The position numbers and the translations under genes are program-made. The notes under the pieces were generated by a model, which had not been told where the DNA came from, did not search any database, and saw only the letters and a program-made list of their open reading frames with translations. A stretch of DNA of 64,000 nt from Nitrospira sp. GTDB taxonomy: Bacteria; Nitrospirota; Nitrospiria; Nitrospirales; Nitrospiraceae. This document shows positions 49,538 to 64,000 of this stretch, piece by piece (the first letter of the stretch is position 1; every line of letters starts with the position of its first letter). Location: NCBI GenBank assembly GCA_025360665.1, contig JANYBU010000288.1, positions 5,855 through 69,854 on the forward strand. Reading direction: 5' to 3'.

Positions 49538-49636
49538 GTGTCGTATCTATGATGCCGAACGATGTGTGCGTATAGGACTGCTGAACAGACTGATTGCATG
49601 ACCCTCCCGTGAGAGCGAGAGTCCTGCTCACTGTGC

Positions 49637-49663
49637 TATCGGGATAAATAGGGCAGAACTTGA
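49637..49663 (-). promoter_or_regulatory. Sigma28-like promoter for the HD-GYP/hybrid-kinase operon
   Basis: The minus strand reads gGTCAAG-ttctgccctatttat-CCCGATAGC (TCAA-N16-CCCGATA), about 100 nt upstream of ATG 49537. Confidence 0.4.
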
Positions 49664-49731
49664 CCCAATTGAAGGGGATTCCAGCTCAACGTGCTGTGCT
49701 GGTTACCGTGACGCCGGCCCATCGTATCACC

Positions 49732-49757
49732 TCAAGATTCTCATCTCGGCACCGATA
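49732..49757 (+). promoter_or_regulatory. Sigma28-like promoter for the second HD-GYP/PilZ unit
   Basis: cCTCAAG-attctcatctcggc-ACCGATAGAG (TCAA-N15-ACCGATA). It is divergent from the minus-strand site at 49637-49663. Confidence 0.5.
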
Positions 49758-49835
49758 GAGTTCATCAGAACCCGTTGCTCTTTGATGAGACTCGGTGCCG
49801 CCGCTGTCCCGCATCCTCAGAGGACCATGCGAAAC

Positions 49836-51057
49836 ATGCGAAAACGGATTTCCATTGATCAGCTGAAAATCGGCATGAAGGTCGAGAAACTCGACCGCTC
49901 CTGGTTGGCTACGCCGTTCTTGCGTCATAAGTTCACGATTACGTCCTCAGAACAAATCGAGCAACTGCACGCCAGCGGTGTCCAACTACTTGATGTCGAT
50001 GCTGACGACGCATACCAGGACTCCGGCTCGTTCATACCAGCTATGGCAGCGGAGACTGAAACCCCTCAGCCGGCATCTCTACCCCTGGAGCCCGAACCGT
50101 CAGCCACCCGTTTGCCGAAGAGCTGCCCGCAGCACAACAGGCCTACAAGAGCGCTAAATTGATCATTCAACAGGCCATGGAAGACATCCGGATGGGTCGC
50201 GCGCTGAACATGGAGGCGGTCAGTGAAGTTGTCGGGAGCATGGCTGACAGCATCCTGCGCAGCCCTGACGCGCTCACCAGTCTGACGCGCCTCAAACAGT
50301 TCGACGAATACACCTTTTTTCACTCCGTCAACACCTCCATCCTGGCACTCTCGGTCGGGAGACATCTCGGGTATAGGCGCGCGCCACTGCTTCAGCTGGG
50401 AACCGGCATGTTGTTGCACGACATCGGTAAAACGCAAATCCCGATCGAGATTCTGAACAAGCTGGGGCGCTACGAGGCCGACGAGTTCGAGATCATGAAG
50501 CAACATGTCCTACGCGGGGCGGAGATCCTGTCGCACACCACCGGCCTCACCGATATGTTTCTGAAGCCCACCCTGGAGCATCATGAGCGGGTTGACGGGA
50601 CTGGGTACCCCCATCAACGATCCAGAACAGACCTCAGTCAGTTTGGCCGTATTGCCGCCATTGTGGACATTTATGATGCCGTGACGAGCGACCGTTGTTA
50701 TCACAAAGGGAAAACACCGCACGATACCCTTCAGATTCTCTATCAATTGGGTACTCGGGGCCATGTGGACGGAGAGCTGGTCCAACAGTTCGTGCAGGTC
50801 GTGGGGGTCTATCCCGTCGGTTCATGTGTCTCGCTCAATACGGGCGAGAGGGCGATCGTGAAGCAAGTCAATCACCACGCTCCACTACAACCCCTGGTCG
50901 TGCTGATCACGGATGAAGAGGAGCACGTGCGATCTAGCCCCGCGACCTCGACCTCGCCGCGCAGCTCCAAAAACCGAATCGGACAATCGCGTCGATTCTT
51001 GATCCAACCACCTTGGGGGTCAATCCTTGCCACTATCTTGATAAGGACGCCACATGA
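49836..51057 (+). pseudogene. HD-GYP paralog interrupted by two single-base frameshifts
   Basis: It consists of three colinear pieces in three reading frames.
- The N-terminus (MRKRISIDQLKIGMKVEKLDRSWLATPFLRHKF...) parallels the start of ORF 48197-49537.
- The HD-GYP core (LLHDIGK, LEHHERVDGTGYP) lies in the frame of ORF 50159-51199.
- The tail (PRDLDLAAQLQKPNRTIASILDPTTLGVNPCHYLDKDAT*) is in the third frame and parallels RVDLGAQATGASMRTITKVLDPVHERVNVAMFLD.
- The shifts lie within 50060-50105 and 50930-50945, both in C-runs. Confidence 0.75.
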
Positions 51058-51797
51058 CGGAACCAGAGTATGCCCCCGCACGTTCGTCGATTCTCATGGT
51101 CGGACTACCGCTCCAGCTGGTGATCGGGTCCGGCCAAGGCAAAGTGAACTGTGGATCCACATTGCTGGGCTGGAAAGAGAGGGCCTGGCTGATTTGTGAA
51201 TGGCCGTTTCATTTCGGGCAAGCCGTCCCCTGCGAAGCGGGCACTCGGTGTCTCGTTCGCTATCTGGTAGACGGTAAGCTCATCGGCTATGAAAGCGAAG
51301 TCTGCACCACCCAGACTTCTCCTGTCCCACTCCTGTATCTTGCGTTTCCGAAGACCGTCGAAGAAATCCACCTCCGTAAACATGTGCGCGTCCCCAGCAA
51401 TGAGCCGCTACTCCTGATACGTGTCGATGGGAGGGGGGCGGTCTGTGTCGATTCGAAGGGGGTTTCGACGATGGGCGGCCTCGTCCAGGACCTCAGTGTG
51501 GCTGGGTGTCGAGTGGTGTTTCAGCAATCGCGTCTCATCTTCCTCCTGGGCTCCACCGTCCACCTGGAATTCGAGTTGATCGGAATCGGGCACGTGAGCA
51601 ATCTCACCGGCGTGATCAAGAACGTGGCTGAACATGAGAATACGAAATCCATCGGCATCGAGTTTTGCTTCGATGGGAAGGAGTGCATCGAGTATCGCGG
51701 ATGGGGAGGTAGCGTACAGAAAGCCATTGAGCATGCCGTGCTGCAAAAGCAGCATACGCTCGACATGGCGCCCGATACGGTATCTGAATCACCCTAA
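51054..51797 (+). CDS. YcgR-like PilZ-domain c-di-GMP receptor
   Basis: 247 aa. RxxxR (LRKHVRV) and DxSxxG (DLSVAGC) PilZ motifs follow an N-terminal PilZN-like half. The ATG overlaps the frame-restored stop of the HD-GYP paralog (ATGA). Confidence 0.8.
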   Translation: MTEPEYAPARSSILMVGLPLQLVIGSGQGKVNCGSTLLGWKERAWLICEWPFHFGQAVPCEAGTRCLVRYLVDGKLIGYESEVCTTQTSPVPLLYLAFPKTVEEIHLRKHVRVPSNEPLLLIRVDGRGAVCVDSKGVSTMGGLVQDLSVAGCRVVFQQSRLIFLLGSTVHLEFELIGIGHVSNLTGVIKNVAEHENTKSIGIEFCFDGKECIEYRGWGGSVQKAIEHAVLQKQHTLDMAPDTVSESP

Positions 51798-51948: not shown

Positions 51949-52182
51949 TAGTTCCAGTTTCCCCGTGCGCCCCCTCGCCCGATCGCCGCATGTCCCGGAA
52001 TCATCTTGCCCGCTGACCGGAAATTTTTGCCTGGCAAGGCCAGCGTACAGCCGGCTATTCCGACAAAACCCCCGTCATCCACGCTGCCACAGGCTTCTGC
52101 CTGCGGCACGCGAATTGAACTCCGCGACATGTCTCTGGGCCGTGTTATTCGGGTGGTGACGAACCAAGATCATACCGGGCGC

Positions 52183-52208
52183 TCAAGTTTTTTTCAGGCT
52201 TGTCGATA
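52183..52208 (+). promoter_or_regulatory. Sigma28-like promoter at the head of the glycosylation island
   Basis: gCTCAAG-tttttttcaggctt-GTCGATAGAG (TCAA-N15-GTCGATA). It is strikingly similar to the flgM site, including TTTTCAGGCT in the spacer and GATAGAG. It lies about 30 nt before the first island ORF. Confidence 0.5.
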
Positions 52209-52239
52209 GAGTAATTACTCACTGTATGAATGGTGGCCC

Positions 52240-52851
52240 TTGGCGAAAACCGTACAGAACTTTTACAGACCAACCCCCGCGAGGCGTGAACTGCTGGCAT
52301 TGCGGTCATTGGCTGAAATCGAACAGATCAGCCAGCACGAACTCGGCAGACAAATCGGGGTCAGCAGTGCCATGGCGCATAACTACGTACAAGCCTTGGT
52401 GGACCAGGGCTATGTCATGACGAGCGGCGAGACGAATCGGACTATGCGATACCTCGTGACGGCCACAGGGCGAAGGCGCTTGGCTACGCTGATGCAGGAG
52501 TACGCGAGTGAAATCGCGCGCATGTATTCAATCGCCAAGACCGAAGTGGAAAAGCGGCTCCACCAACTGTGGAAAGAAGGGATCCAGGCGATCGTGGTCT
52601 TCGGGGCAGCGGAGACGGGTGAGTTGATCTATAGCGCCGTGAAAGCCACTCCCATGCGTATCGTCGGCTGGGTCGATAACGATGTTGCGAAACATCAGCA
52701 ACGATTCGGATACCTGACCGTGTGCCCACCCGACACCATTGAATCTTGTCGCCCGGACGCGGTGCTCATTGCCTCCTCCGGCAAGACGGAGGACATCCAT
52801 CGGCAGCTGCGCCATCTTTCGAAGAAAGGGATCGCCGTTGTCACCCTCTAA
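52240..52851 (+). CDS. Winged-helix (MarR/TrmB-like) DNA-binding protein with C-terminal Rossmann-like domain
   Basis: 203 aa with a TTG start. wHTH segment ISQHELGRQIGVSSAMAHNYVQALVDQGYV. The C-terminal AIVVFGAAETGELIY...IVGWVDND...DAVLIAS pattern resembles nucleotide-binding N-domains seen in sugar-modifying enzymes. Confidence 0.6.
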   Translation: MAKTVQNFYRPTPARRELLALRSLAEIEQISQHELGRQIGVSSAMAHNYVQALVDQGYVMTSGETNRTMRYLVTATGRRRLATLMQEYASEIARMYSIAKTEVEKRLHQLWKEGIQAIVVFGAAETGELIYSAVKATPMRIVGWVDNDVAKHQQRFGYLTVCPPDTIESCRPDAVLIASSGKTEDIHRQLRHLSKKGIAVVTL

Positions 52852-53905
52852 GTGTGCCACACCGCCATATCGGGCAGGGGTCGTCGGGTTAGGCCAGATT
52901 GGCAATCTGTTCGATGAGGATCCCAAACGCGAGGAGATCTGGACCCATACGGGAGCCTACTTAGCGTTGCCCAATGTCACCCTAACAGCCGGAGCCGATT
53001 CAGATGAGGATCGTCGTCGCCGATTCCTCTCTCGCAGCGTCACTGCGAGCGCCTACGTGGACTACCGGTCTATGCTGCAAGCCGAGAACCTCCAGGTTGT
53101 GAGCATCTGTGCGCCGACCGCGCTGCATCACGAGATGGTTCTTGCCGGCGTGCGCGCCGGAGTCTGCGCAATCTTCTGCGAAAAGCCGCTGGCGTCGACG
53201 CCGGAACAGGCGGCAGAGATGGTCGAGGCCTGTCAGGCAGCCGGCGTGCTATTGGCTGTCAACCATACGCGGCGTTGGGAGCCTATTTATGTCCGGGCCA
53301 AACAGCTTCTGGCAGAAGGCGCGATCGGTCGCCTTGAAGCGATCGTCGGCTACTATCCGGGGAAAGTCTTCACGATGGGCACACACCTCTTCGACCTCAT
53401 GCGGTTCTTCGGGGGGGACGTCCAATGGGTCTGTGGCCAGTCGCCCGATCCTCGGCTGGCGTCAGATGAAGAAGGAAGCCTGTCCGGACAAATGCAGTTC
53501 CGCTCCGGCGCCACGGGATGCATCGTCGCAGGGTGGGACCGGACCAACCATGTGTTCGAACTGGATCTCTTCGGCAGTGCCGGGCGGTTGCGTCTCTCCG
53601 GAGATGGAGCCGCCATGAACCTCTGTCGATTCGAGGAGAGTCCACGCTACTCCGGTTATCGAGAGCTTGCGTCGGACGACGAGATCGGACGGTTCAGCCG
53701 CGAGGGGCAACCCCCGGTCAGCCGTCTTGTGACTGCGATGCGCGACGTCATCGATTGTATCGGCAGCGGGAAGCAGCCAGCCTGCAGCGGGCAAGATGGT
53801 CTCGCGGCGGTGGACATTGCCTGCGCGCTCTGCGAGTCGGTCAAGCACGGCAACAGTCGAGTGGCGCTGCCTCTCGTGGCATCATTATCGACATGTCAAA
53901 TCTAA
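52838..53905 (+). CDS. Gfo/Idh/MocA-family NAD(P)-dependent oxidoreductase
   Basis: RAGVVGLGQIGN near the N-terminus and the EKP motif (AIFCEKPLA). I propose a TTG start at 52838. The track start 52739 lies inside the upstream gene. Confidence 0.8.
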   Translation: MSPSKCATPPYRAGVVGLGQIGNLFDEDPKREEIWTHTGAYLALPNVTLTAGADSDEDRRRRFLSRSVTASAYVDYRSMLQAENLQVVSICAPTALHHEMVLAGVRAGVCAIFCEKPLASTPEQAAEMVEACQAAGVLLAVNHTRRWEPIYVRAKQLLAEGAIGRLEAIVGYYPGKVFTMGTHLFDLMRFFGGDVQWVCGQSPDPRLASDEEGSLSGQMQFRSGATGCIVAGWDRTNHVFELDLFGSAGRLRLSGDGAAMNLCRFEESPRYSGYRELASDDEIGRFSREGQPPVSRLVTAMRDVIDCIGSGKQPACSGQDGLAAVDIACALCESVKHGNSRVALPLVASLSTCQI

Positions 53906-53924
53906 ACAGAAGGAGGGTAGGCGA

Positions 53925-55238
53925 GTGAAGAGCATAGCCACAGCAAGTAAGTTAGCGCTCCTGGGAGGAAATCCCGTTCGCAGCAAGCCCTTTCCTCCGT
54001 ACCCCATCATCGGGGATGAGGAAAAGAAGGCGGTCATGGAGGTCATGGATTCAGGACATATCTCGAGCTTCTCGGCAAGCCGGCCTGGATTCCTGGGCGG
54101 CGAACGGGTCCAAGCGTTTGAGACAGCGTTTGCTGCCTATCATTCGATGGCCTATGGAGTCACTTTCAACTCGGCGACCTCCGGCCTGCATGCCGCCGTT
54201 GCGGCCTGCGGAGTCGGGCCCGGCGATGAAGTCATCGTTCCTCCCTACTCCTTTACGGCAACCGCCACAGCGGTGTTGCACCACAATGCCATTCCTGTCT
54301 TCGCCGACATCGATCCGGTGACGTTTTGTTTGGATCCCCACTCCTTCGAAGCGGCGATCACGCCACGCACGAAAGCCGTTATCCCCGTGCATCTGCTCGG
54401 CCATCCGGCCGAGATGGACCAGATCCTCGCCATCGCGCGGCGGCACAAGCTGAAAGTGATCGAGGATTGCGCACAGGCTCCGGGCGCGAAGTACAAGGGC
54501 CGCCTGGTCGGCACCATGGGAGACTGCGCCGTGTTCAGCTTCCAGGAAAGCAAGAACATGATGACCGGGGAAGGCGGGATGCTGATCATGAATGATCCGG
54601 ACCTGGCCGAACAGTCACGCATGGTGCGGAATCACGGGGAGACCGTCATTGCCGGGGAGGTTCGCAAATACCTGGCGCAGACGATCGGCTGGAACTACCG
54701 GATGACCGAAATCGAGGCCGCCATCGGTTTTGTCCAGTTGAAGAAGCTGGATGCCCAGAACGGCCATCGACGGGAGTTGGCCCGGTATCTGCTTGATCGG
54801 CTTCCGGCTGTGCCGGGACTCCGGTATCCGGTCGAGCAGGAACAGAACCACCATGTCTATCACGTATTCGGCATGACCTACGATGAGCAGCGGATCGGCA
54901 TTCCCCGGCAGCGGTTTATTCAGGCGCTCGTGGCCGAGGGCATTCCGGTCGGGTCCGGCTATCCCAGGCCGCTCTACCACAATCCACTCTTTCAAGAGCG
55001 GATGGCCTATGGGAAACAGGGTTGCCCCTTCACCTGCCATCTCTATCAAGGCACCGTGTCCTACGCCAAAGGTCTCTGTCCCGTGGCGGAAGACCTCTGT
55101 GCCCAATCGGCCCTCTGGACCTTCGTCGTCCGTCCGCCAGCCACGACCGTCGACATGGACGATATCATTCATGCGTTTGAGAAAGTGATCGAGGCCATTC
55201 CCGAACTCAAGGAGCAGAGCCATGAAATTACGGTCTAG
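53925..55238 (+). CDS. DegT/DnrJ/EryC1-family PLP-dependent sugar aminotransferase
   Basis: About 437 aa from GTG 53925 (AAGGAGGG RBS). LLGGNPVR..., SATSGLHAAVAA and the PLP-lysine context FSFQESKNMMTGEGGML. Confidence 0.9.
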   Translation: MKSIATASKLALLGGNPVRSKPFPPYPIIGDEEKKAVMEVMDSGHISSFSASRPGFLGGERVQAFETAFAAYHSMAYGVTFNSATSGLHAAVAACGVGPGDEVIVPPYSFTATATAVLHHNAIPVFADIDPVTFCLDPHSFEAAITPRTKAVIPVHLLGHPAEMDQILAIARRHKLKVIEDCAQAPGAKYKGRLVGTMGDCAVFSFQESKNMMTGEGGMLIMNDPDLAEQSRMVRNHGETVIAGEVRKYLAQTIGWNYRMTEIEAAIGFVQLKKLDAQNGHRRELARYLLDRLPAVPGLRYPVEQEQNHHVYHVFGMTYDEQRIGIPRQRFIQALVAEGIPVGSGYPRPLYHNPLFQERMAYGKQGCPFTCHLYQGTVSYAKGLCPVAEDLCAQSALWTFVVRPPATTVDMDDIIHAFEKVIEAIPELKEQSHEITV

Positions 55239-55947
55239 TGAGTCCCATGGAGTTGTCGGCGTTATTCATGCCCGCGGCGGTTCGAAACGCATCCCCTTGA
55301 AGAACATCAAGCTGCTCGCCGGGCGGCCGCTGATCTCCTACATGGTGGAGGCGGCGGTAGAGAGCCGGTTGCTGGATCGCGTGATTGTGTCGACCGACCA
55401 TCCAGACATTGCGCAGATTGCTCTCGAGTACGGGGCGGAAGTTCCGTTCATGAGGCCGGCCGACCTGGCGGAAGACATCGCCTCCGAGTTGGTCACCCAG
55501 CATGCCGTCCGGTTCATCGAGGAACAGGGCTATCGGGTATGCATCGCCTTGACGATGCAACCGACGACTCCATTCTGCACGAGCGAGGACATCGACGCCT
55601 GTATTGCCAAAATGTTGGAGACCGACTTGGACACCGTCTTTACCGCCTGCGAAATACACGAGCGACCGGAATGGATGTATCGCCTCAAAGGTGCGCTTGC
55701 ACTCCCCCTCACCGGCACCCTGGTGCAGGGCGATGCCGGAATCAGTCAGAAGCTGCCGAAGCTGTACATTCCGAATGGAGCGGTCTGGGCAACAAGACGA
55801 TCGATCTTGATGGAACAGAATCTCATTACCGGGCCGCACAGCGGGATCGTGATCATGTCACGGGAGCGGTCGGTTGATATCGACGAACCGGTGGACTTTA
55901 TCACGGCAGAGGCGATGGCGAATGAACTAATGAAAGTGAGGGCCTAA
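55222..55947 (+). CDS. Acylneuraminate (nonulosonate) cytidylyltransferase family (NeuA/LegF/PseF-like)
   Basis: 241 aa. The N-terminal motif VIHARGGSKRIPLKNIKLLAGRPLISY is characteristic of CMP-nonulosonic acid synthetases. Confidence 0.9.
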   Translation: MKLRSSESHGVVGVIHARGGSKRIPLKNIKLLAGRPLISYMVEAAVESRLLDRVIVSTDHPDIAQIALEYGAEVPFMRPADLAEDIASELVTQHAVRFIEEQGYRVCIALTMQPTTPFCTSEDIDACIAKMLETDLDTVFTACEIHERPEWMYRLKGALALPLTGTLVQGDAGISQKLPKLYIPNGAVWATRRSILMEQNLITGPHSGIVIMSRERSVDIDEPVDFITAEAMANELMKVRA

Positions 55948-55950
55948 GTC

Positions 55951-56196
55951 ATGGCGAAATTGATCGGCAATTATACCGTCTCGGGACAGCCAACAGAGAA
56001 CGCAAAGCCTGGTCAGCCAGATGCGACCGAGCGTGAGAAGGCCGAAGGCGCGCATCAGGCCACGGTGTCCGAGTTCGAACGCCGCGCGTTGGGGCGGCTC
56101 GGCGGCAGCATCGCCTTCGTTATGAAGGGTAAGAATGTCCTCTGGAGAGGGGAGAAGGCGACAGACTCGAGCAAAGGGACCGGCGATGAAAAGTAG
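55951..56196 (+). CDS. Small hypothetical protein (81 aa)
   Basis: An SD-like GTGAGGG lies 8 nt upstream. The ORF is tightly packed between island genes and overlaps the next start by 11 nt. No recognisable motif. Confidence 0.4.
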   Translation: MAKLIGNYTVSGQPTENAKPGQPDATEREKAEGAHQATVSEFERRALGRLGGSIAFVMKGKNVLWRGEKATDSSKGTGDEK

Positions 56197-57190
56197 TCTC
56201 GACCGATCCTGCTTGGACCTGGTTGCCCAAGCGACCTTTCAGAAAACGGCGGAGATCGGCTTCCAACACGCGAAGCAGAATTTGCCCTATATGAAACAAA
56301 CGGTCCTAGACGTGCCGCGTACCAGTCCTGAGAAAGGCACGTCGGCGATCAGCATGGCGGCGGGACCGAGCCTGCACCGGCGCCAGACCATCCAGACCAT
56401 TAAGAATCTCAACTATCGCGGAACCCTGATCGTCGCCGATGGGGCCATGGGCCATTGCCTGCGGAACGGCCTGATTCCCGATTACGTCGTATGCGTAGAC
56501 CCGCACCCGACCTGGATCATCCGTTGGTTCGGGGACCCGGATCTGGCCACGCGGGCGGATGACGATTACTTCCGCCGGCAGGATCTGGATCCGGCCCTCA
56601 ATACCAAAGAGCGGGAGCGCAACGACGAATTGATCCGTCTGGTCAACGAGCACGGTCCCAAGATCAAGGTCATCATGGCGACCTGTGTGGCACCGAATGT
56701 GGTCGCCCGTTGCCGGGACGCCGGCATGTCGCTCTACTGGTGGAACCCGATTTGCGACGACTACGACGTGCCGGACAGCCATACCAGGCGACTGTACGAC
56801 TTGACCGGTATGCCCTGCATGGTGACCGGTGGAAACGGCGGCGCGTCTGCGTGGATTTTTGCCAACGCCGTTCTGCAGAAGTCACCCGTGGCATTCGTCG
56901 GGATGGATCTCGGATATGCCCCAGGCACGCCGTTGTCGAAGACTCAGTACTACCATGAACTGATCAAGGTCTATCCGGAAGAGCGGCTCAGTGAGGCCTA
57001 CATCGAGATCCACAATCCGTACCTCAACGAAACCTGGTACACCGACCCGACCTACTACTGGTACCGGCAATGTTTTCTGGATGTCGTGAAACAATCGGGC
57101 TGGACCGCCTACAACTGTACGGAAGGCGGTACGTTATTCGGCGAAGGTATCGAGTGGATGGCGCTGGATCACTTCATCAAAGAACAGTAA
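56186..57190 (+). CDS. DUF115 / MptE-like (Maf-related) protein, short form
   Basis: About 334 aa from ATG 56186. ISMAAGPSL...GTLIVADGAMGHCLRNGLIPDYVVCVDPHP is the core of the motility-accessory-factor / MptE-like fold. Confidence 0.75.
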   Translation: MKSSLDRSCLDLVAQATFQKTAEIGFQHAKQNLPYMKQTVLDVPRTSPEKGTSAISMAAGPSLHRRQTIQTIKNLNYRGTLIVADGAMGHCLRNGLIPDYVVCVDPHPTWIIRWFGDPDLATRADDDYFRRQDLDPALNTKERERNDELIRLVNEHGPKIKVIMATCVAPNVVARCRDAGMSLYWWNPICDDYDVPDSHTRRLYDLTGMPCMVTGGNGGASAWIFANAVLQKSPVAFVGMDLGYAPGTPLSKTQYYHELIKVYPEERLSEAYIEIHNPYLNETWYTDPTYYWYRQCFLDVVKQSGWTAYNCTEGGTLFGEGIEWMALDHFIKEQ

Positions 57191-57244
57191 AGAAGCAGTC
57201 AGCCGCAGCGATGAGCTAAGAGCTGATAGCTCAAGGAGAAGAAG

Positions 57245-58846
57245 ATGGCCAAGGTCTTAATCATCAATCCCGTGATTCGCGCCGAAGACGATCCCCGGCA
57301 TGTGCCGTACGGATTGGCGCTGCTCGCAGCGGTCGCGAATCGGGAGGGGCATGAGATCCAAGTATTTGACGCCAACGGCTGGCGCCCGACCGACGAGGAA
57401 CTGATCGATGCCATTAGCGCGGATAGCTGGGATGTGATTGCCACCGGCGGCATCACGACAGCCTATGGGTACATGAAGAAGAGCGTCCAATTCGCCAGGC
57501 AATACGCGCCCGATGCGCTCATTATGATGGGCGGCGGCGCCTTGACCGCCATGCCGCGCGACATCATGGGCTTCTGCCCCCAGATCGATATCGGCGGCGT
57601 CGGAGAAGGCGTGATTACCTTTCCGGAGGTCTTGAAAAAGATCGACGAAGGCCGGACCCGGACGAGCAATTGGTCCGACGTCCAGGGCATCATCTGGCGC
57701 AGCGCGCAGGGCGAGATCCAACTCAATGAGGAGCGGCCTCTGCTTCAGGATATCGACAGCTTGCCGTTTCCGATGTACGAACTCTTCCCCCTTGATATCT
57801 ATTTCAAGAACTCCTGCATTTTATTGTCGGAAGAAGCCATGCTGGCGAAACGGCGGCTGGACATCAATATGTCTTACGGTTGCTCGCTCATCTGCCGCTT
57901 CTGCTTCCATCTGGGGCTGACTGGCGACATGAAATATACGGATACGGAGCAGGTGAACGGCGGCGACGTAGTGTTCAACAACGATCGCAACATCCGCTGG
58001 CACAGCCCTGAGTTCGTCGTTCGGCAAGTGAAGTACATGAAGGAACGGTTCAAGGTAGATTTCGTCTCCTTCCTCGACGAGAATCTCATGACCATGCACG
58101 TGTCGACAAAAAAGAAGTGGCTCTTCGAAATCTCCGATCTGTGGATTAAAGCGGGCCTCCAGCCCAGCTGTGTCCGGGACGGCGTGCCCCACGATCCCAA
58201 GACCTGCGACGGCGTGCATTGGGGCGGGACCAGCCACGCCACCCTGGCCTATCCGGAAGTGCTGCAAGCCATGCACAAGGCCGGTTGCACCTATCTGGAT
58301 TATGGTCTTGAGTCCTTCTCGGACCGCGTACTCAAGACGATTGGCAAGGGCGCGACGGTGAAGACGAACGAACGCTGTTTGAAGATCACGATGGAGGCAG
58401 GCATCAGGCCGATCCCCAACCAGATCGTGGGCTTCCCTGACGAGTTTTTCGACAGTCTGTACGACAACATGGCTTTCTGGGAACGGATCGGCATCATGGT
58501 CAAGCCGTTCTTTGCCACGCCCTATCCTGGTTCCGAGTGGTACTACACCTACAAGGACCAGATTTTGGAGCAATACGGCGGCGATTTGGAGGCCTTCATC
58601 CTCGATGTCGGGGACGCCACGAAGATCACGGCGGTGATCTGCCACAACTTCAATGCGATCGAATTGCTCGGCCTCCGGGAGTTGATGCTCCAGCACGATG
58701 TCAAACGGATCAAGGAATATGAGACGTACTGGCGCTCCATTCATGGCGAACCGCGGTTTGCCAAGGAGGTGTTGGCGGCCAAGGCGAAGGCTGAGGCAGC
58801 CCCGCAGCTGGTGCAACTGGAGCGGAAACTGGTCACGGCCGCTTAG
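57245..58846 (+). CDS. B12-binding-domain radical SAM enzyme
   Basis: 533 aa. The N-terminal cobalamin-binding-type Rossmann region reads KVLIINPV...VPYGLALLAAVANREGHEIQVFDAN...WDVIATGG. The radical SAM cluster motif CSLICRFC (CxxxCxxC) follows. Confidence 0.85.
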   Translation: MAKVLIINPVIRAEDDPRHVPYGLALLAAVANREGHEIQVFDANGWRPTDEELIDAISADSWDVIATGGITTAYGYMKKSVQFARQYAPDALIMMGGGALTAMPRDIMGFCPQIDIGGVGEGVITFPEVLKKIDEGRTRTSNWSDVQGIIWRSAQGEIQLNEERPLLQDIDSLPFPMYELFPLDIYFKNSCILLSEEAMLAKRRLDINMSYGCSLICRFCFHLGLTGDMKYTDTEQVNGGDVVFNNDRNIRWHSPEFVVRQVKYMKERFKVDFVSFLDENLMTMHVSTKKKWLFEISDLWIKAGLQPSCVRDGVPHDPKTCDGVHWGGTSHATLAYPEVLQAMHKAGCTYLDYGLESFSDRVLKTIGKGATVKTNERCLKITMEAGIRPIPNQIVGFPDEFFDSLYDNMAFWERIGIMVKPFFATPYPGSEWYYTYKDQILEQYGGDLEAFILDVGDATKITAVICHNFNAIELLGLRELMLQHDVKRIKEYETYWRSIHGEPRFAKEVLAAKAKAEAAPQLVQLERKLVTAA

Positions 58847-58855
58847 GAGGCACAG

Positions 58856-59911
58856 ATGGCATTCTCATGCGGTACAAAATTGCAGAGCATCAGAATCGGC
58901 GGTCGTGAAATCGGCGACGGCCAGCCGCCCTTCGTCATTGCCGAAGTCGGCATCAACCACAATGGGGACGTGAATCTGGCCAAACAGATGGTGTACGCGG
59001 CGAAAGAGGCCGGCGCCCACTGCATCAAGTTCCAGACCCACCTCACCGGCAAGGAGATGGTTCACACGCTGATGACGCCCGGCGCCATCAGCAAGGAGCC
59101 TCTGTGGAACATCATCGAACGGTGCGAACTCACGGCGGCGGAAGAACGGGCGGTGAAACAGCTCTGCGACGAGGTGGGTATCCTCTTCCTCTCGACCCCC
59201 TTTTCACGGGAGGCTGCCGATCAACTTGAGGAGTTGGGGATCCCTGCCTACAAGATAGGGTCCGGAGAGATCACCAATCTCCCGCTCATCGAACACGTCG
59301 CCAAGAAGGGCCTGCCGATGATTGTCTCAACCGGCATGACCGAGCTGGAAGAAATTGGGGAGACGGTCACGCTCATCGAGCGCTACGACGTACCGCTGAT
59401 TCTGTTGCAATGTACCTCGACCTATCCGACGGCCTACGCGGATGTGAAGTTGGGCGCCATCCAGGTCCTGCGAGAGCAATTCGGTGTGCCGGTCGGCCTG
59501 TCCGATCACTCGATCGGCATCTATACGGCCCTGGGCGCAGTAGCCAAAGGTGCCTGTGTGCTGGAGAAGCATTTCACCACCAGTCGGCAGTTGCCTGGGC
59601 CGGATCAGGGTCTCTCCCTCGAACCGCATGAACTCCGGGAGCTTGTGAAGGGCGCCGACGCCATCTACCAAGCGCTCGGCTCGGAGAAGGCCATCCTGGG
59701 AAAGGAGCGGCCGGTGTTGGGATTCGCCCGTGCGTCTGTCGTCGTCATTAAACCAGTAGCAGCCGGAGACCGGTTCACGGATGAAAATCTCTGGGTCAAA
59801 CGTCCGGCTGACGGCGAGATTCCCGCGCGTGAGTACAAGAAACTGCTCGGACGGGTGGCCAAGGTTCCCATGCAACCGGATCACCAAATCAAATGGAGTG
59901 AGATAGGGTGA
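58856..59911 (+). CDS. Nonulosonic acid synthase (NeuB/LegI/PseI family)
   Basis: 351 aa. PFVIAEVGINHNGDVNLAKQMVYAAKEAGAHCIKFQTH plus a C-terminal SAF domain. Confidence 0.9.
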   Translation: MAFSCGTKLQSIRIGGREIGDGQPPFVIAEVGINHNGDVNLAKQMVYAAKEAGAHCIKFQTHLTGKEMVHTLMTPGAISKEPLWNIIERCELTAAEERAVKQLCDEVGILFLSTPFSREAADQLEELGIPAYKIGSGEITNLPLIEHVAKKGLPMIVSTGMTELEEIGETVTLIERYDVPLILLQCTSTYPTAYADVKLGAIQVLREQFGVPVGLSDHSIGIYTALGAVAKGACVLEKHFTTSRQLPGPDQGLSLEPHELRELVKGADAIYQALGSEKAILGKERPVLGFARASVVVIKPVAAGDRFTDENLWVKRPADGEIPAREYKKLLGRVAKVPMQPDHQIKWSEIG

Positions 59912-60149
59912 TGGGGGCTGATGATCTTCTGTGTTCGCGCAACGAGCGGCCTCAGAAGGGTGGGGGAGCAGCCAGACCATCCTTCTTGCTCGCAGAACGC
60001 GCACGATGAAACGGTGCTCGTCCGATGCGCGCAGGGAAGTCCAGTCTGGCGGCTCCCCTTACGGTAAAGTGGGGAAATCAGAAAGCCCTCGCCTGACCAC
60101 CAAGTCGCAAATGTGAGAGTTCGATGAGAGGAAGGGAGAATACCCGAGC

Positions 60150-61343
60150 ATGCGTACCATCGCCATTGTCACCGAACGACGAGCGGATTACAGCCGGTTC
60201 AAGCCGATTCTCGAATTGATCCGGGAGGACCAGGATCTCGACTACAAGCTTATCGTGACCGGCATCTCTCTGATGGCGGAGCACGGACACGACATCGACG
60301 TGATCAAACGGGACGGATTTTCCATTGAAGCGACCCTGCCGATGTTTCGGGACCAGGCGCCGGATACCGGCGCCGAAATGACCAGGGCCATCGGACGGAT
60401 TCTTCCCGGGCTGGTCGATCTCTTCGAGCGTCTCCGTCCCGACCTCATTCTGTCGGGATTCGACATCGGGGCCAATTTCGCGGCGACCGTAGCCGGCGCC
60501 CATATGAACATCCCGGTCGCACATATTCAGGGGGGGGAGGTGACAGGGAGCATCGACGAGTCGCTTCGGCACGCGATGTCGAAATTCGCCCACCTACATT
60601 TTCCTGCCACGGAAGACGCGGCTCAGCGGTTGATCCGCATGGGGGAACATCCGAAATCCGTGTTCGTCGTCGGCTGCCCCTCGTTGGACGTGGTGCTACA
60701 CACGCCGGTCGCTCCCAAGGCCGAGGTGCTGACGGCGCACGGCCTCGATCCTCAGCAGCCCTATGTCGTCATTCTGCAGCATCCGGTGACGACGGAAGTC
60801 ACGAAGGCGGGACAGCAAATCCAAGAGACCTTGGCCGCCGTTCAAGAGATGCGGCTCCAGGGCGTGCTCATCTATCCGAACAACGATGCCGGCGCGCAAC
60901 AGATCATTCATCACATCAAGCAGAGCCGCATCACTGTCGTGCGCAGTCTGCCTCCGGAGGGGTTCGTCAATCTCGTGCGGTATGCCGCGGCGCTCGTTGG
61001 GAACTCCAGCAGCGGCATTCATGAAACCGCCAGTCTGGGTGTGCCGACCGTAAACGTCGGCACGAGGCAGCAGGGGCGGGAACGGCCGCTCAACGTCCTG
61101 GACACGGGCTATGACCGCGACGCCATCAAACAGGCGCTGGACGTGGCCCTCTACGACGAAACATTCAAGGGGAAAGTCGCTGAACGTGTGAATCTTTACG
61201 GCGATGGACATTCAGCGGAACGCATCGTCAGGATTCTGAAAACCGTATCGCTGGACAACCTCATTCAAAAAAGGTTTTACGATGGCGAACCAGACCATAG
61301 CGCTGATCGGCGGGACCGGATTTATCGGCCGGCATTTGCTTGA
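60150..61343 (+). CDS. Hydrolysing UDP/GDP-HexNAc 2-epimerase (NeuC/LegG family)
   Basis: 397 aa. IAIVTERRADYSRFKPIL..., HIQGGEVTGSIDESLRHAMSK and NSSSGIHE. The C-terminal ~20 codons overlap the next gene by 62 nt. Confidence 0.85.
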   Translation: MRTIAIVTERRADYSRFKPILELIREDQDLDYKLIVTGISLMAEHGHDIDVIKRDGFSIEATLPMFRDQAPDTGAEMTRAIGRILPGLVDLFERLRPDLILSGFDIGANFAATVAGAHMNIPVAHIQGGEVTGSIDESLRHAMSKFAHLHFPATEDAAQRLIRMGEHPKSVFVVGCPSLDVVLHTPVAPKAEVLTAHGLDPQQPYVVILQHPVTTEVTKAGQQIQETLAAVQEMRLQGVLIYPNNDAGAQQIIHHIKQSRITVVRSLPPEGFVNLVRYAAALVGNSSSGIHETASLGVPTVNVGTRQQGRERPLNVLDTGYDRDAIKQALDVALYDETFKGKVAERVNLYGDGHSAERIVRILKTVSLDNLIQKRFYDGEPDHSADRRDRIYRPAFA

Positions 61344-62184
61344 GGCGCTGACCGCACAACCAACGAGAGTGTTGGTGCATCGGGGCCAGCCTTCCTGGCT
61401 GAGCGGTCTTCAGCATGTCAAGCCGGTGCCGGGCGACATCTTCGATCCGTCCTCACTTGATCGATTCTTGAGCGGCTGTGAGGTGCTCATTAATTTGACG
61501 GGGCAGGTCGAAGGCCCGGTGGATCGGTATCTGGGCCTCAACGTGAGAGGCACCCTCAATCTGGCGCAGGCCTGTGCGCGACAGCATGTGCTGCGCGTGA
61601 TCCATGCCTCCTCCGCCCTCGTCTATGGCGATGCGCTCAATGCCGCGGAAGAGAGTCCCTGCCATCCGTTCTCGCCCTACGCCACCATGAAATGTGCGGC
61701 GGAAGAGATCATGTGTTCGCTGCTGGGTCCGACGGCACAGGTGATGTGTTTCAGACTGTCCAATGTCTACGGCCCGGCTCAGACGAAGGGACTGATCCCC
61801 TACCTATTGAACTGTATTCGCACCCGGCAGCGCATCTCTATCGATGCCGACGGCGCGCAAACCAGAGATTTTGTCTATGTGAAGGACGTCGCCGAGGCGT
61901 TTGCGAAAGCCCTTACGACGCCTGACTGGGCCGACCACATCAACATCGGGTCCGGTGTTCCCACCAGCGTCATCACGCTCCTGCGCCAGATTGAGGAAGT
62001 GCTGGAGCTTCCCGCCATCGGGCAGTATTGCCCGGAGCATACCGGCGGCGAGCGGCGAAATACCGTGTCGATCGAACGAGCCGCGTCCGTCCTGGCCTGG
62101 CGTGCCACGACCACCTTGGAAGAGGGATTGCGCGCGATACTGCGCTCCCAGACGCTCACAGTTCATCATGAGGTGGCGGCATGA
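61282..62184 (+). CDS. NAD-dependent sugar epimerase/dehydratase (extended SDR)
   Basis: 300 aa. N-terminal IGGTGFIGRHL and the catalytic YxxxK (YATMKCAAEE). Confidence 0.85.
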   Translation: MANQTIALIGGTGFIGRHLLEALTAQPTRVLVHRGQPSWLSGLQHVKPVPGDIFDPSSLDRFLSGCEVLINLTGQVEGPVDRYLGLNVRGTLNLAQACARQHVLRVIHASSALVYGDALNAAEESPCHPFSPYATMKCAAEEIMCSLLGPTAQVMCFRLSNVYGPAQTKGLIPYLLNCIRTRQRISIDADGAQTRDFVYVKDVAEAFAKALTTPDWADHINIGSGVPTSVITLLRQIEEVLELPAIGQYCPEHTGGERRNTVSIERAASVLAWRATTTLEEGLRAILRSQTLTVHHEVAA

Positions 62185-63251
62185 GGCAGTTTATTGAAGG
62201 CAAGACCATTCTCGTGACCGGGGGCACCGGCTCCATCGGGTCTGAGATCGTCCGGCAACTCTTGTCCTACGATCCCAAGATGGTCCGCGTCATTTCTCGC
62301 AGCGAGCACATGCAATATCAGTTGATCCAGGAACTGGGGCGTCTGCCGAACCTCGTCTGCTTCATCGGTGACGTGCGAGACCCCGAGCGTCTGAACCGGG
62401 CTTCGGTCGAGGCCGACGTCATCTTCCACGTGGCCGCGATGAAACATGTGCCGTTGTGTGAGTTCAACGCCTTTGAGGCCATCGAGTCGAATGTGATCGG
62501 CGCGCAGAACGTCATCAACGCTGCCATCACGAACAAAGTCAAACAGGTTGTCGCAATCAGCACGGATAAGGCCGTCAATCCGATGAATGTCATGGGCGCC
62601 ACCAAACTGCTGGCGGAAAAACTGTTTACGAGTGCGCACCATTATGCTGGTGTCAGTGGGACCAAATTTGCCTGCGTCCGGTTCGGCAATGTGCTGGGGT
62701 CCCGGGGTTCCGTCGTACCGGCCTGGATCGACCAGATCGTCAAAGGTCAGCCGGTGACGATTACCGATCCGGATATGACCCGTTTCTTCTTGTCGATCCC
62801 GCAAGCCGTGAGTCTGGTCTTCAAGGCCATGAATCGCATGGTGGGAGGGGAGATCTTCATTTTGAAGATGCCGGTGTTGCGCATGGGGGATTTGGCGGAG
62901 GCGGTCATTCAGCATTTTTCGCCGGATCAGGGTATCGATCCCACGGCCGTCGAACGGAAGGTCGTCGGCATTAGGCCAGGCGAGAAGATGTACGAACTCC
63001 TCATGACGGAAGACGAAGCCTCCATCGCGTTGGAGGTCGACGAGATGTTCATCATCCCGCCGCACATCGAGATCCCGCATCGTGGCTTAAAGCGCCGCAC
63101 CTACGAAGGGGCCCAGCCGGCGCCGGCGGCAGGGTATGACTCCCGGCGTGATCTGCCGCTGGGACGCCGGTCGATTCTGCACATGTTGCAAGAGGTGTTT
63201 CCTGAACGTGTTCGGCGTCCGACCCTCCATCGTGCAGCCCTCACGGCTTAG
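62181..63251 (+). CDS. Nucleotide-HexNAc 4,6-dehydratase (CapD/PglF/PseB/LegB family)
   Basis: 356 aa. LVTGGTGSIGSEI, FHVAAMKHVPLCE and STDKAVNPMNVMGATK. Confidence 0.85.
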   Translation: MRQFIEGKTILVTGGTGSIGSEIVRQLLSYDPKMVRVISRSEHMQYQLIQELGRLPNLVCFIGDVRDPERLNRASVEADVIFHVAAMKHVPLCEFNAFEAIESNVIGAQNVINAAITNKVKQVVAISTDKAVNPMNVMGATKLLAEKLFTSAHHYAGVSGTKFACVRFGNVLGSRGSVVPAWIDQIVKGQPVTITDPDMTRFFLSIPQAVSLVFKAMNRMVGGEIFILKMPVLRMGDLAEAVIQHFSPDQGIDPTAVERKVVGIRPGEKMYELLMTEDEASIALEVDEMFIIPPHIEIPHRGLKRRTYEGAQPAPAAGYDSRRDLPLGRRSILHMLQEVFPERVRRPTLHRAALTA

Positions 63252-63270
63252 CCTTAGCGAAAGGACTCCC

Positions 63271-64000
63271 ATGAGTTTCCTCGAACAGAATCTTGCCATC
63301 ATCGAAGCGCGCGATCCGGAGTTGGCTGCGCTCATGCGTAGCGACCTCGATTGCAGCCACATCGAGGTGCTCCCGTCTCAGCAGCCGGATGTGCCGACTG
63401 CGCGGGTGACGCTGCCATCCGGAGAACTGGTCCTCCTCCACAACATCGAAGACCCGATCGGCAGCGCCGTTCGTTCAGCTGAAACACACGACATGAAAGC
63501 GGAGAACGGGTCGGTGGTGCTCGGATTCGGATTGGGATATCTGGCCAGAGAGTTGGCGAGGAAGGCGAAAAAAAACCACACAATTGTCATATGCGAAGCG
63601 GACCCGGCGATGCTGAAAACGGCGCTCACCCAGGTCGATTTGCATGAGGTCTTGGAATCCAACTATGTCCGGATATTGGTGGGTGAGCAGATTCCCTTCC
63701 AGGACTGGATCTTTAGACTGGCGACCAAGTTTATGACGGCCAAGGTGGATGTCATTTCCTATGCCCCCTCTGTCCGCCTCAATCCGAAGGCCTATGGAGA
63801 GCTTGAGGCGATTGCGAAGAAGGAGTCCCTGGCCATCATTCTGAACCGGAATACGACGCTGAAAGCCGGCGCGCGCATGATGGAAAATATGCTGCTGAAC
63901 TTTCCGGATGTCCTGCGGTCGACCGGCGTGAATCATCTGGAAAAATTATTTCAGGGAAGACCGGCGGTGCTGGTGGCGGCGGGGCCTTCGTTGGAGAAGA
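63271..64000 (+). CDS. Motility accessory factor (Maf)-type protein, 5' partial (runs off the window)
   Basis: An open frame from ATG 63271 to the window end, absent from the ORF track. It reads MSFLEQNLAIIEARDPELAALM...VVLGFGLGYLARELA...LFQGRPAVLVAAGPSLEK. The N-terminal layout and GPSL motif are typical of Maf flagellin nonulosonate transferases. Confidence 0.75.
   Translation, partial: MSFLEQNLAIIEARDPELAALMRSDLDCSHIEVLPSQQPDVPTARVTLPSGELVLLHNIEDPIGSAVRSAETHDMKAENGSVVLGFGLGYLARELARKAKKNHTIVICEADPAMLKTALTQVDLHEVLESNYVRILVGEQIPFQDWIFRLATKFMTAKVDVISYAPSVRLNPKAYGELEAIAKKESLAIILNRNTTLKAGARMMENMLLNFPDVLRSTGVNHLEKLFQGRPAVLVAAGPSLEK

Follow-up and report, generated by a model that had tools for sequence, protein, structure and literature searches.

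Nonulosonic (sialic-acid-like) sugars have a controlling part in the assembly of flagella and in recognition by phages and the immune system, and we know of no radical or cobalamin-dependent step in their biosynthesis. A stretch of 64,000 nucleotides from a Nitrospira sp. genome (assembly GCA_025360665.1, contig JANYBU010000288.1, positions 5,855 to 69,854), referred to below as the window, raises the question of why a radical S-adenosylmethionine (SAM) enzyme with a B12-binding domain should be encoded in the middle of a nonulosonate operon. The gene occupies positions 57245–58846 of the window. An earlier note on this DNA had proposed that its product modifies a flagellar nonulosonate, or the N-acyl side chain of that sugar, for instance by C-methylation. 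A literature search returned no paper that links a radical SAM enzyme to nonulosonate biosynthesis. The enzyme was found to belong to a conserved trio, together with a short DUF115 protein and a small disordered protein, and it very probably works in nonulosonate or glycan metabolism. The narrower view, that it is the catalytic subunit of a previously undescribed nonulosonate-tailoring module, is put forward here with a little less than even confidence.

The Radical SAM Enzyme and Its Relatives

The gene runs from an ATG to a TAG codon, with AAGGAG 8 nt before the start. It is a real gene, because the database search returned more than 1,500 homologous clusters. Residues 11–129 of the product match the Pfam B12-binding family (56.8 bits; cutoff 32.1) and residues 207–405 match Radical_SAM (60.6 bits; cutoff 29.5). 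The motif CSLICRFC reads as C213-x3-C217-x2-C220, and none of its three cysteines varies among 76 aligned homologues. The earlier note's description of a 533-residue B12-binding radical SAM protein with this motif was thus borne out by the open reading frame (ORF), the Pfam domains and the invariant cysteines. The CxxxCxxC motif, the Pfam score and Foldseek matches to the barrel core place the protein in the radical SAM superfamily, and the fusion of an N-terminal Rossmann-type B12-binding domain to that core is the class-B architecture. The AlphaFold2 (AF2) model is confident (pLDDT 89, pTM 0.88) and shows residues 3–134 as strands and helices in alternation. Judging by its Pfam domain, the protein would be expected to bind cobalamin. 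The nearest relatives come from Nitrospira metagenome-assembled genomes (MAGs; 84–95% identity), and outside this genus the identity to the window enzyme is 52–69%.

The protein was compared with the curated class-B equivalogs of NCBIfam, among them BchE, HpnJ, HpnR, PhpK, BzaD, AprD4 and ApyD. Sixteen matches were obtained, every one far under its cutoff. The best was ApyD, in the B12 domain region only (97 bits versus 750), followed by BchE (88 versus 481), HpnJ (80 versus 578) and, much lower, AprD4 (20.8 versus 500); rSAM_ocin_1 was also listed. Most of the class-B families matched are C- or P-methyltransferases. An identity as BchE, as HpnJ or as a member of a lipid family was ruled out by these scores and by the genomic context, as no bacteriochlorophyll or hopanoid genes were found at any locus examined. 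The earlier note had allowed that the protein might fall into an unrelated family with a defined role of this kind, and neither family claims it. PADLOC returned no matches.

An exhaustive search of 1.84 billion representatives (E ≤ 1e-3) matched 21,484 proteins altogether, in distinct tiers. One full-length representative scored 686 bits, sister groups scored 405–499 bits (42–49% identity), and the next tier lay at about 270–290 bits (about 36–38% identity). On the strength of these sequence comparisons the enzyme belongs to a discrete, uncharacterised clade of the class-B radical SAM superfamily. The earlier note had already taken it for a class-B (B12) enzyme.

Among solved structures, the single sequence matched AprD4 alone (E = 0.0046), and a profile of the family gave six weak class-B matches with AprD4 at the top (E = 5.6e-6). 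A Foldseek search with the AF2 model returned OxsB, AprD4, TsrM, MgmA, CysS and TokK as the best matches, with OxsB first. All lie at a like distance (query-normalised TM 0.54–0.63, 13–17% identity). The model-based fold search confirms class B and puts methylases and non-methylases equally far from the enzyme; therefore its architecture is established and its chemistry is not. The non-methylases, two in number, have a nucleoside or an aminosugar as their substrate. Cobalamin-dependent radical SAM methyltransferases pass the methyl group on through methylcobalamin, using two SAM and forming S-adenosylhomocysteine (SAH) and 5'-deoxyadenosine; to our knowledge, no sequence motif is diagnostic of them.

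The methylases among these relatives, TokK, CysS, TsrM and MgmA (Mmp10-type), share with the window enzyme an N-terminal Rossmann B12 domain, a CxxxCxxC radical SAM barrel and a helical C-terminal domain (Foldseek probability 1.0, query-normalised TM 0.54–0.59). The profile also reached TokK, MgmA and CysS (E of 9e-6 to 2e-5), whereas TsrM appeared in the fold search only. They differ from it in their sequences (13–17% identity) and in their substrates, which are a carbapenem, a carrier-bound benzoate, tryptophan and a protein glutamine, none of them a sugar. We know of no reported need of these enzymes for a DUF115 or small-protein partner.

The same matches can be read in favour of a non-methylating radical reaction on the nonulosonate or on a nucleotide diphosphate (NDP)-hexose precursor. 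Such a reaction could be a 1,2-diol dehydration like that of AprD4, leading to deoxygenation with a partner reductase, a skeleton rearrangement like those of OxsB or HpnJ, or an epimerisation. The 1,2-diol dehydratase AprD4 (PDB 6FD2), from the apramycin pathway, has an aminosugar substrate; no other PDB entry matches the profile better, and its target coverage is the highest (target-normalised TM 0.73), while OxsB leads the fold search. HpnJ has a sugar moiety as its substrate and is aligned in part (TIGR03471), and BchE (TIGR02026) is aligned over nearly its full length, if weakly. In addition, genes for oxidoreductases of the short-chain dehydrogenase/reductase (SDR) or GFO type adjoin the trio in many loci. 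However, all these matches stand at 13–17% identity (16% for AprD4, a dehydratase rather than a methylase) and are no better than those to methylases. Most characterised class-B enzymes, including most of those on the NCBIfam list, are methylases, and we know of no deoxygenated or rearranged nonulosonate. A backbone with an additional CH2 has, moreover, been detected in Magnetospirillum, a genus in which the module occurs (see below). A non-methylating reaction is therefore regarded as unlikely, although it deserves to be taken seriously.

A Conserved Module across Phyla

Sixty related loci from isolate genomes, MAGs and metagenomes were compared, and linkage was counted in the 33 non-redundant loci that extend at least 5 kb on each side of the radical SAM gene. 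The short DUF115 gene is present in all 33 and the gene of the small protein in 32, followed by those of NeuB (31), the CMP-transferase (30) and a NeuC-type epimerase (28). These loci come from Nitrospirota, Methylomirabilota, Chloroflexota, Elusimicrobia, Acidobacteria, Binatia and Alphaproteobacteria. The small protein, the short DUF115 protein and the radical SAM enzyme are, on this comparison of gene content, a conserved trio, usually with a fourth part, a regulator with a winged helix-turn-helix (wHTH) and a Rossmann-like domain. The earlier note had placed the radical SAM gene among nonulosonate genes, a link that proved to be conserved across phyla; its gene list was incomplete in that the obligate small partner of 81 residues was overlooked.

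The small proteins of the module have about 60–85 residues. Between the DUF115 stop and the radical SAM start there are usually at most a few tens of nucleotides, or the two genes overlap, and overlaps are common between the module genes (4–11 nt where they occur). The trio is kept despite reordering, as radical SAM–DUF115–small protein in one locus (L043) and as DUF115–radical SAM–PglD–small protein in another (L051). When loci were sampled from the side of the small protein, the same arrangement was found in three out of three, and the recurrent fourth gene came to light.

According to depositor labels, the carriers belong to Nitrospirota, Methylomirabilota/Rokubacteria, Chloroflexota (Limnocylindria, Dehalococcoidia), Elusimicrobia, Acidobacteria, Binatia, and Alpha- and Gammaproteobacteria, and the module is conserved in many uncultured environmental phyla. 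One contig labelled Nitrosotalea sp. (L041) has the same context as Limnocylindria/Rokubacteria loci (L025, L049), and its radical SAM protein is 63% identical to that of the window, a value that theirs share. Probably, this is a bacterial contig that was mis-binned, and not an archaeal member.

The radical SAM enzyme is the most conserved protein of the cluster, with a median identity of 63% between Nitrospira and the other phyla versus 38–46% for DUF115, NeuB, NeuC and the CMP-transferase. Pairwise divergences of these five proteins correlate with r = 0.90–0.97, and that of the radical SAM enzyme with those of NeuB, NeuC and the CMP-transferase at r = 0.92–0.97, both correlations being partly confounded by species phylogeny.

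It might be argued that the linkage is incidental: the trio would then have a task of another kind, for instance in modifying a cofactor or a lipid, and would simply travel along with surface-glycan islands. Two loci speak for this: one where the trio stands in a sulfated-glycan context (L053), with no NeuB within 10 kb, and one with no NeuB within range (L051). Against it stand the NeuB and CMP-transferase counts given above, which come from at least seven phyla, the start/stop overlaps, the divergence correlated with that of the nonulosonate core enzymes, and a DUF115 partner that is homologous to the nonulosonate-transferring domain of Maf. An incidental association is accordingly thought very improbable.

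The earlier note had also tied the enzyme to the flagellum, and this part of the proposal did not hold. In many carriers the surroundings of the module are those of polysaccharide or ABC-transporter loci: flippase-type ABC transporters, Wzx/Wzy-like genes, glycosyltransferases or sulfotransferases are encoded there, and the flanks examined contain no flagellar genes. The module is therefore a general surface-glycan feature; its flagellar character in this Nitrospira is due solely to the Maf gene in the cluster.

Some loci contain additional genes. In a Rokubacteria subset (L034–L038, L040, L047), a 667-residue protein with a polysaccharide-deacetylase domain is encoded between the DUF115 and radical SAM genes (L035, 7989–9992). 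The Nitrospira-related metagenome contig L051 has a second B12-binding radical SAM gene (1–530; 549 residues), 9 kb upstream of the module and beside a methyltransferase. In L053, a metagenome contig of 1.44 Mb, the trio is accompanied by ATP sulfurylase and adenosine 5'-phosphosulfate (APS) kinase, for the synthesis of 3'-phosphoadenosine 5'-phosphosulfate (PAPS), as well as by a sulfotransferase and a PP-binding protein. Two other loci, L002 and L057, likewise have sulfotransferase-like genes after the trio.

The Short DUF115 Protein and the Small Protein

The earlier note had placed the radical SAM gene between a DUF115/Maf-like gene and that of NeuB. The placement was correct, but the Maf-like neighbour amounts to the Maf core only, and the flagellin Maf is a separate gene that starts at 63271. 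Homologues point to ATG 56186 as the likely true start of the short DUF115 gene, which then overlaps the stop of the small ORF by 11 nt. The protein corresponds to the central domain of Maf (residues 190–452; hhalign, 96% probability, 242 columns). In a profile comparison with the PDB, only a nucleotide-binding stretch of about 60 residues was matched, in the MptE kinase (8sd5, E = 8e-8) and in Maf (5mu5, E = 0.018). Pfam gave no Maf_flag10_N or TPR match, and the NCBIfam PseD score was 37 bits versus a cutoff of 670. The protein therefore has the central domain expected of a Maf, but lacks the N-terminal and TPR domains and falls short of the usual length of about 600–900 residues. It also has a conserved acidic insertion of its own, RWFGDP...DDYFRRQD...WWNP.YDD. 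The short DUF115 protein was rejected as a flagellin Maf, since with only 334–351 residues it represents the Maf catalytic core alone. This is a pitfall for annotation: a short DUF115 gene beside neuB does not necessarily encode a flagellin glycosyltransferase.

The central domain of Maf uses CMP-nonulosonates, and Maf enzymes glycosylate Ser/Thr residues of proteins. The closest known arrangement is that of Maf and the tripartite Maf-2/GlfM system (bioRxiv 10.1101/2023.12.03.569772). The short DUF115 protein is a homologue of the central domain of Maf and, like Maf-2, is paired with a small cis-encoded protein, but it is without the Maf N-terminal and TPR/acceptor-binding domains and has its own insertion. 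GlfM is a four-helix bundle, whereas the small partner of the short DUF115 protein is disordered.

The true Maf of this operon is cut off by the window end, which is why ORF lists miss it. Its Nitrospira relative (L006, 16487–19132) is a protein of 881 residues with an MptE-like score of 152 bits, a Maf_flag10_N domain and TPR repeats. In Nitrospira relatives (L006, 19239–20348; also L007, L011 and L048), Maf is followed by a 369-residue BNR-repeat (sialidase-like) protein, which in the window would lie just past the end.

The gene of the small protein has GAGGG upstream of its ATG. An AF2 model built on an alignment of 54 sequences gave a pLDDT of 53, with one helix (residues 31–49) and disorder elsewhere. 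The layout is nevertheless well defined: an N-terminal [FYL]-L-[KR]-G-N-[YF] element, an acidic linker of variable length, and a block FE+KAL.+LGGSI.FV.K...W. Invariant in a diverse alignment of 16 sequences are L4, G6, N7, E43, L50, G51, G52, S53, I54, F56, V57 and W65. A profile search reached 2,115 database clusters, and the 120 matches listed are all unannotated proteins of 59–105 residues; the profile hidden Markov model (HMM) matches in 49 of 53 loci. A GlfM-like four-helix bundle was ruled out by the AF2 model. A role of the Ser-rich C-terminal tail as a glycosylation acceptor was also rejected, as the tail is unconserved in larger sequence sets. No fusion of the small protein to DUF115 was found among the 120 matches listed, and a single read-through ORF was seen in a Nitrospirota MAG (L048, 8721–9917). 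There the small ORF and the DUF115 ORF form one continuous frame, which may be a natural fusion or an assembly/frameshift artefact.

Such a protein could also be the true substrate or the covalent carrier of the system. The Maf-core DUF115 protein would then O-sialylate it, for example at Ser53, and the radical SAM enzyme would modify either the peptide or the tethered sugar. The former would be akin to a ribosomally synthesised and post-translationally modified peptide (RiPP), with the N-terminal GN[YF] as the core and the C-terminal segment for recognition. The linkage of the small protein to the radical SAM enzyme is as tight as that of DUF115, and disorder with two short conserved epitopes and a variable acidic linker is what one would see if one segment served for recognition and another were the site of modification. 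This layout resembles that of a precursor peptide, and the invariant Ser53 lies in a GGS turn. Maf enzymes glycosylate Ser/Thr, and the short DUF115 protein is without an acceptor-binding domain of its own. ApyD, the top NCBIfam match, is a RiPP enzyme, rSAM_ocin_1 is listed as well, and some class-B enzymes, such as CysS, use peptide or carrier-bound substrates.

Several observations weigh on the other side. No RRE/PqqD or SPASM domain and no protease was found in the module proteins, and no RRE/PqqD-like domain, peptidase or peptide exporter in the trio or the adjacent window genes, with Pfam and NCBIfam. The ApyD match, as noted, covers the B12 region only and is far below the cutoff. In every phylum, the module stands in nucleotide-sugar/glycan-assembly operons and not in peptide-export clusters. 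The C-terminal tail and the Tyr/Phe position are unconserved as acceptor sites. Furthermore, if the module makes a ten-carbon sugar, a free CMP-activated form of that sugar exists and a protein tether is not required. A substrate or carrier role of the small protein is therefore considered unlikely, though it merits attention.

A related idea combines this role with sugar extension. The mini-protein would be an essential adaptor or covalent carrier, in the latter case O-sialylated at Ser53 by the Maf-core enzyme, and the radical SAM enzyme would extend the sugar chain, possibly iteratively. Decosonic acids, with ten carbons or more, would then be a widespread and overlooked class of surface sugars in Nitrospira, Rokubacteria, Chloroflexota, Elusimicrobia and magnetotactic bacteria. 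We regard this combination as quite doubtful.

Ten-Carbon Ulosonic Acids and a Possible Reaction

Rare "potential 10 C" ulosonic acids were described by Kleikamp et al., notably in Magnetospirillum gryphiswaldense (PMC8157484). In a SugarBase preprint of 2026, CMP-activated species of this organism were reported at m/z 679.1983, 693.2139 and 707.2296, in CH2 steps. After the loss of all acyl groups, these species gave a 1,2-diamino-4,5-methylenedioxybenzene (DMB) backbone marker at 311.10, versus 297.09 for legionaminic and pseudaminic acids (Leg/Pse). Third-stage mass spectrometry (MS3) of the C10 species showed four C–C cleavages versus three, O-methylation was argued against, and no gene was named (bioRxiv 10.64898/2026.04.20.719630).

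The complete module is present in Magnetospirillum sp. ME-1 (CP015848.1, 2.798–2.820 Mb). Its radical SAM protein (WP_085374024.1) is 53% identical to that of the window and is encoded in a Leg-type operon, in the order dehydratase, DegT, NeuC, NeuB, formyltransferase, PtmE-like protein, a 575-residue unknown protein, CMP-transferase, small protein, DUF115 and radical SAM enzyme. Proteins of 56 and 348 residues are encoded next to it. By analogy, a cobalamin-dependent radical SAM methylase would be expected to lengthen an unactivated deoxy-sugar backbone by one carbon. The module is thus the best genetic candidate for the Magnetospirillum C10 ulosonic acids.

Class-B enzymes with chemistry of this kind exist. 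Fom3 C-methylates a CMP-tagged phosphonate, and GenK and GenD1 C-methylate aminoglycoside sugars. Compared by their chemistry rather than by sequence, all three resemble the reaction proposed here in acting on an unactivated sp3 carbon; they differ in belonging to antibiotic pathways and in being without DUF115 or small-protein partners.

The trio may well tailor a Leg-type nonulosonate through backbone C-methylation by the radical SAM enzyme, giving a C10 ulosonic acid; this is the reading adopted here, at slightly under even probability. The Leg-type pathway (dehydratase, aminotransferase, NeuC-type epimerase, NeuB and CMP-transferase) would provide a CMP-activated 5,7-diamino-3,5,7,9-tetradeoxy-nonulosonate. 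The DUF115 core, aided by the small protein, would bind this CMP-sugar and present it to the radical SAM enzyme, whose 5'-deoxyadenosyl radical would take a hydrogen atom from a carbon that is not activated, the terminal C9 methyl being the simplest choice. Methylcobalamin would then give the methyl group, and the resulting ulosonic acid would have ten carbons. This C10 sugar would be put on flagellin by the separate long Maf in this Nitrospira, and would go into other surface glycans in the remaining phyla. The C-methylation suggested in the earlier note has gained plausibility from the C10 CMP-ulosonic acids of M. gryphiswaldense and the module in ME-1; the methylation chemistry itself, like the substrate, the point in the pathway where the enzyme comes in and the roles of both partners, is something that we infer.

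The methyl group might instead be added to the N-acyl side chain of the nonulosonate, turning an acetyl into a propionyl group or extending an acetimidoyl or hydroxybutyryl group, as the earlier note had envisaged beside the sugar itself. The genomic linkage is identical for this alternative, and TokK and CysS, both structural relatives, methylate side chains iteratively. N-acyl diversity is also the commonest variation among nonulosonates (PMC8157484). However, the sole chemical correlate concerns the backbone, as the marker remains shifted once every acyl group is lost, and one more C–C cleavage occurs. The N-acyl genes vary by locus (PglD-like, formyltransferase or none) while the radical SAM enzyme is steady at 52–69% identity, which argues for an invariant feature of the substrate and against the side chain. 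N-acyl methylation is therefore held to be improbable.

A number of points weigh against backbone methylation. No feature of sequence or structure in the enzyme separates methylases from non-methylating class-B enzymes, and AprD4, a diol dehydratase, and OxsB, which catalyses a ring contraction, match it as well as do TsrM, CysS and TokK. AprD4 has a similar B12-type domain and reportedly does not use cobalamin. The chemical correlate joins the module of a congener, ME-1, whose enzyme is 53% identical to that of the window, to preprint chemistry of M. gryphiswaldense based on MS only. The Nitrospira cluster has no recognisable N-acyltransferase. The small disordered protein, with its conserved GN[YF] and invariant Ser53, could itself be the substrate. 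Simple sugar methylation also leaves the obligate trio unexplained, because the known methylases of class B work without a DUF115 or small-protein partner. We know of no precedent for an obligate coupling of a Maf-core enzyme, a mini-protein and a class-B radical SAM enzyme, and none of the models considered here fully explains it.

If backbone methylation is correct, it would be a new enzymatic reaction for glycobiology, and the module would serve as a genomic marker that predicts higher-carbon sialic-like sugars and as a source of a biocatalyst for sugars whose synthesis is very difficult. The question of where higher-carbon sialic-like sugars originate can now be put to a concrete gene set that is present in cultivable Magnetospirillum.

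The Operon and Its Surroundings in the Window

The features of the operon are collected in Table 1. Judged from its predicted proteins, the operon around the radical SAM gene is a Leg-type nonulosonate set in which all five pathway functions are matched. The DUF115 ORF ends 54 nt before the radical SAM start, and only 9 nt separate the radical SAM gene from that of NeuB, whose GGAGG overlaps the radical SAM stop codon. A homologue of the GFO/IDH/MocA oxidoreductase adjoins the trio in most loci. The NCBIfam scores of the DegT-type aminotransferase for PseC and LegC are under their cutoffs.

Table 1. Genes of the nonulosonate operon, in window positions.
Feature	Positions	Strand	Basis and remarks
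wHTH (MarR-like) protein with Rossmann-like C-terminal domain, 203 aa	52240..52851	+	Pfam HTH_24/MarR, residues 16–60
GFO/IDH/MocA oxidoreductase	52739..53905	+	Pfam GFO_IDH_MocA and C-terminal domains; true start probably later than the listed TTG
DegT/LegC-type aminotransferase	53796..55238	+	Pfam DegT_DnrJ_EryC1 365 bits, residues 72–422; first ~70 residues probably over-called
CMP-nonulosonate synthetase (cytidylyltransferase)	55222..55947	+	Pfam CTP_transf_3; NCBIfam PseF-like 153 bits, cutoff 206 not reached
Small conserved protein, 81 aa	55951..56196	+	No Pfam family; between the CMP-transferase and DUF115 genes; kept across four phyla
Short DUF115/MptE-like protein, 334 aa	56186..57190	+	Pfam MptE-like 54.3 bits, cutoff 34.6; longest ORF from 56135, 351 aa
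Class-B (B12-binding domain) radical SAM enzyme, 533 aa	57245..58846	+	Pfam B12-binding and Radical_SAM
NeuB-family nonulosonate synthase	58856..59911	+	Pfam NeuB 262 bits and SAF; NCBIfam NeuB_NnaB 361 (cutoff 400), PseI 264
NeuC/LegG-type hydrolysing NDP-sugar 2-epimerase	60150..61343	+	NCBIfam NeuC_NnaA 372.7 bits, cutoff 235.9 passed
SDR-family NAD-dependent epimerase/dehydratase, 300 aa	61282..62184	+	Pfam Epimerase 147 bits
PseB/PglF-like NDP-GlcNAc 4,6-dehydratase	62181..63251	+	Pfam Polysacc_synt_2 354 bits; NCBIfam PseB 337, cutoff 408 not reached
True long Maf flagellin glycosyltransferase, 5' part, 243 aa	63271..64000	+	81% identity to L006 16487–19132; incomplete at window end

With tblastn, neither the 64-kb window nor any of eight Nitrospira loci gave a homologue of a PglD/LegH-type N-acetyltransferase, the enzyme for the 4-amino group, or of a formyltransferase. 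Likewise, no PglD-like N-acetyltransferase, formyltransferase or PtmE-like nucleotidyltransferase was detectable in window positions 52000–64000 or in the Nitrospira loci L005–L016 and L048. Genes of these kinds do adjoin the trio in other phyla.

The protein encoded at the head of the operon has a weak match to Rex in its C-terminal domain (5zz5, E = 1e-3). In L052 and L058–L060 its homologues directly precede the small ORF and overlap it by 4 nt, an arrangement of Rokubacteria-type loci. To judge by its sequence, it probably acts as a ligand-sensing regulator and would be the module's fourth conserved component. It had also been considered as the substrate-binding domain of a sugar C-methyltransferase, an idea that was rejected since the Methyltransf_14 match is confined to members of the Nitrospira lineage. 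The gene was downgraded to a probable regulator because its profile matches MarR and a Rex-like Rossmann domain.

No riboswitch or other structured RNA was found in the window. A scan of the operon region for promoters and terminators gave fewer sites than shuffled controls, none of them convincing. The 238 non-coding nucleotides between neuB and the NeuC-type gene (59912–60149) vary in length in Nitrospira relatives, are absent in L011 and have no Rfam match.

The first 45 kb or so of the window are a flagellar regulon, from fliF to fliW, with the sugar operon downstream. Directly after flgK, on the + strand, lies a gene for an 822-residue protein with flagellin N- and C-terminal domains (41834–44302), which is FlgL-like or a giant flagellin and a possible target of glycosylation. 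Between the flagellar genes and the sugar operon, a signalling block (45321–51797) encodes a hybrid histidine kinase on the - strand (with PAS, two receiver domains and Hpt), two HD-GYP-type proteins and a YcgR/PilZ flagellar brake that responds to cyclic di-GMP (c-di-GMP).

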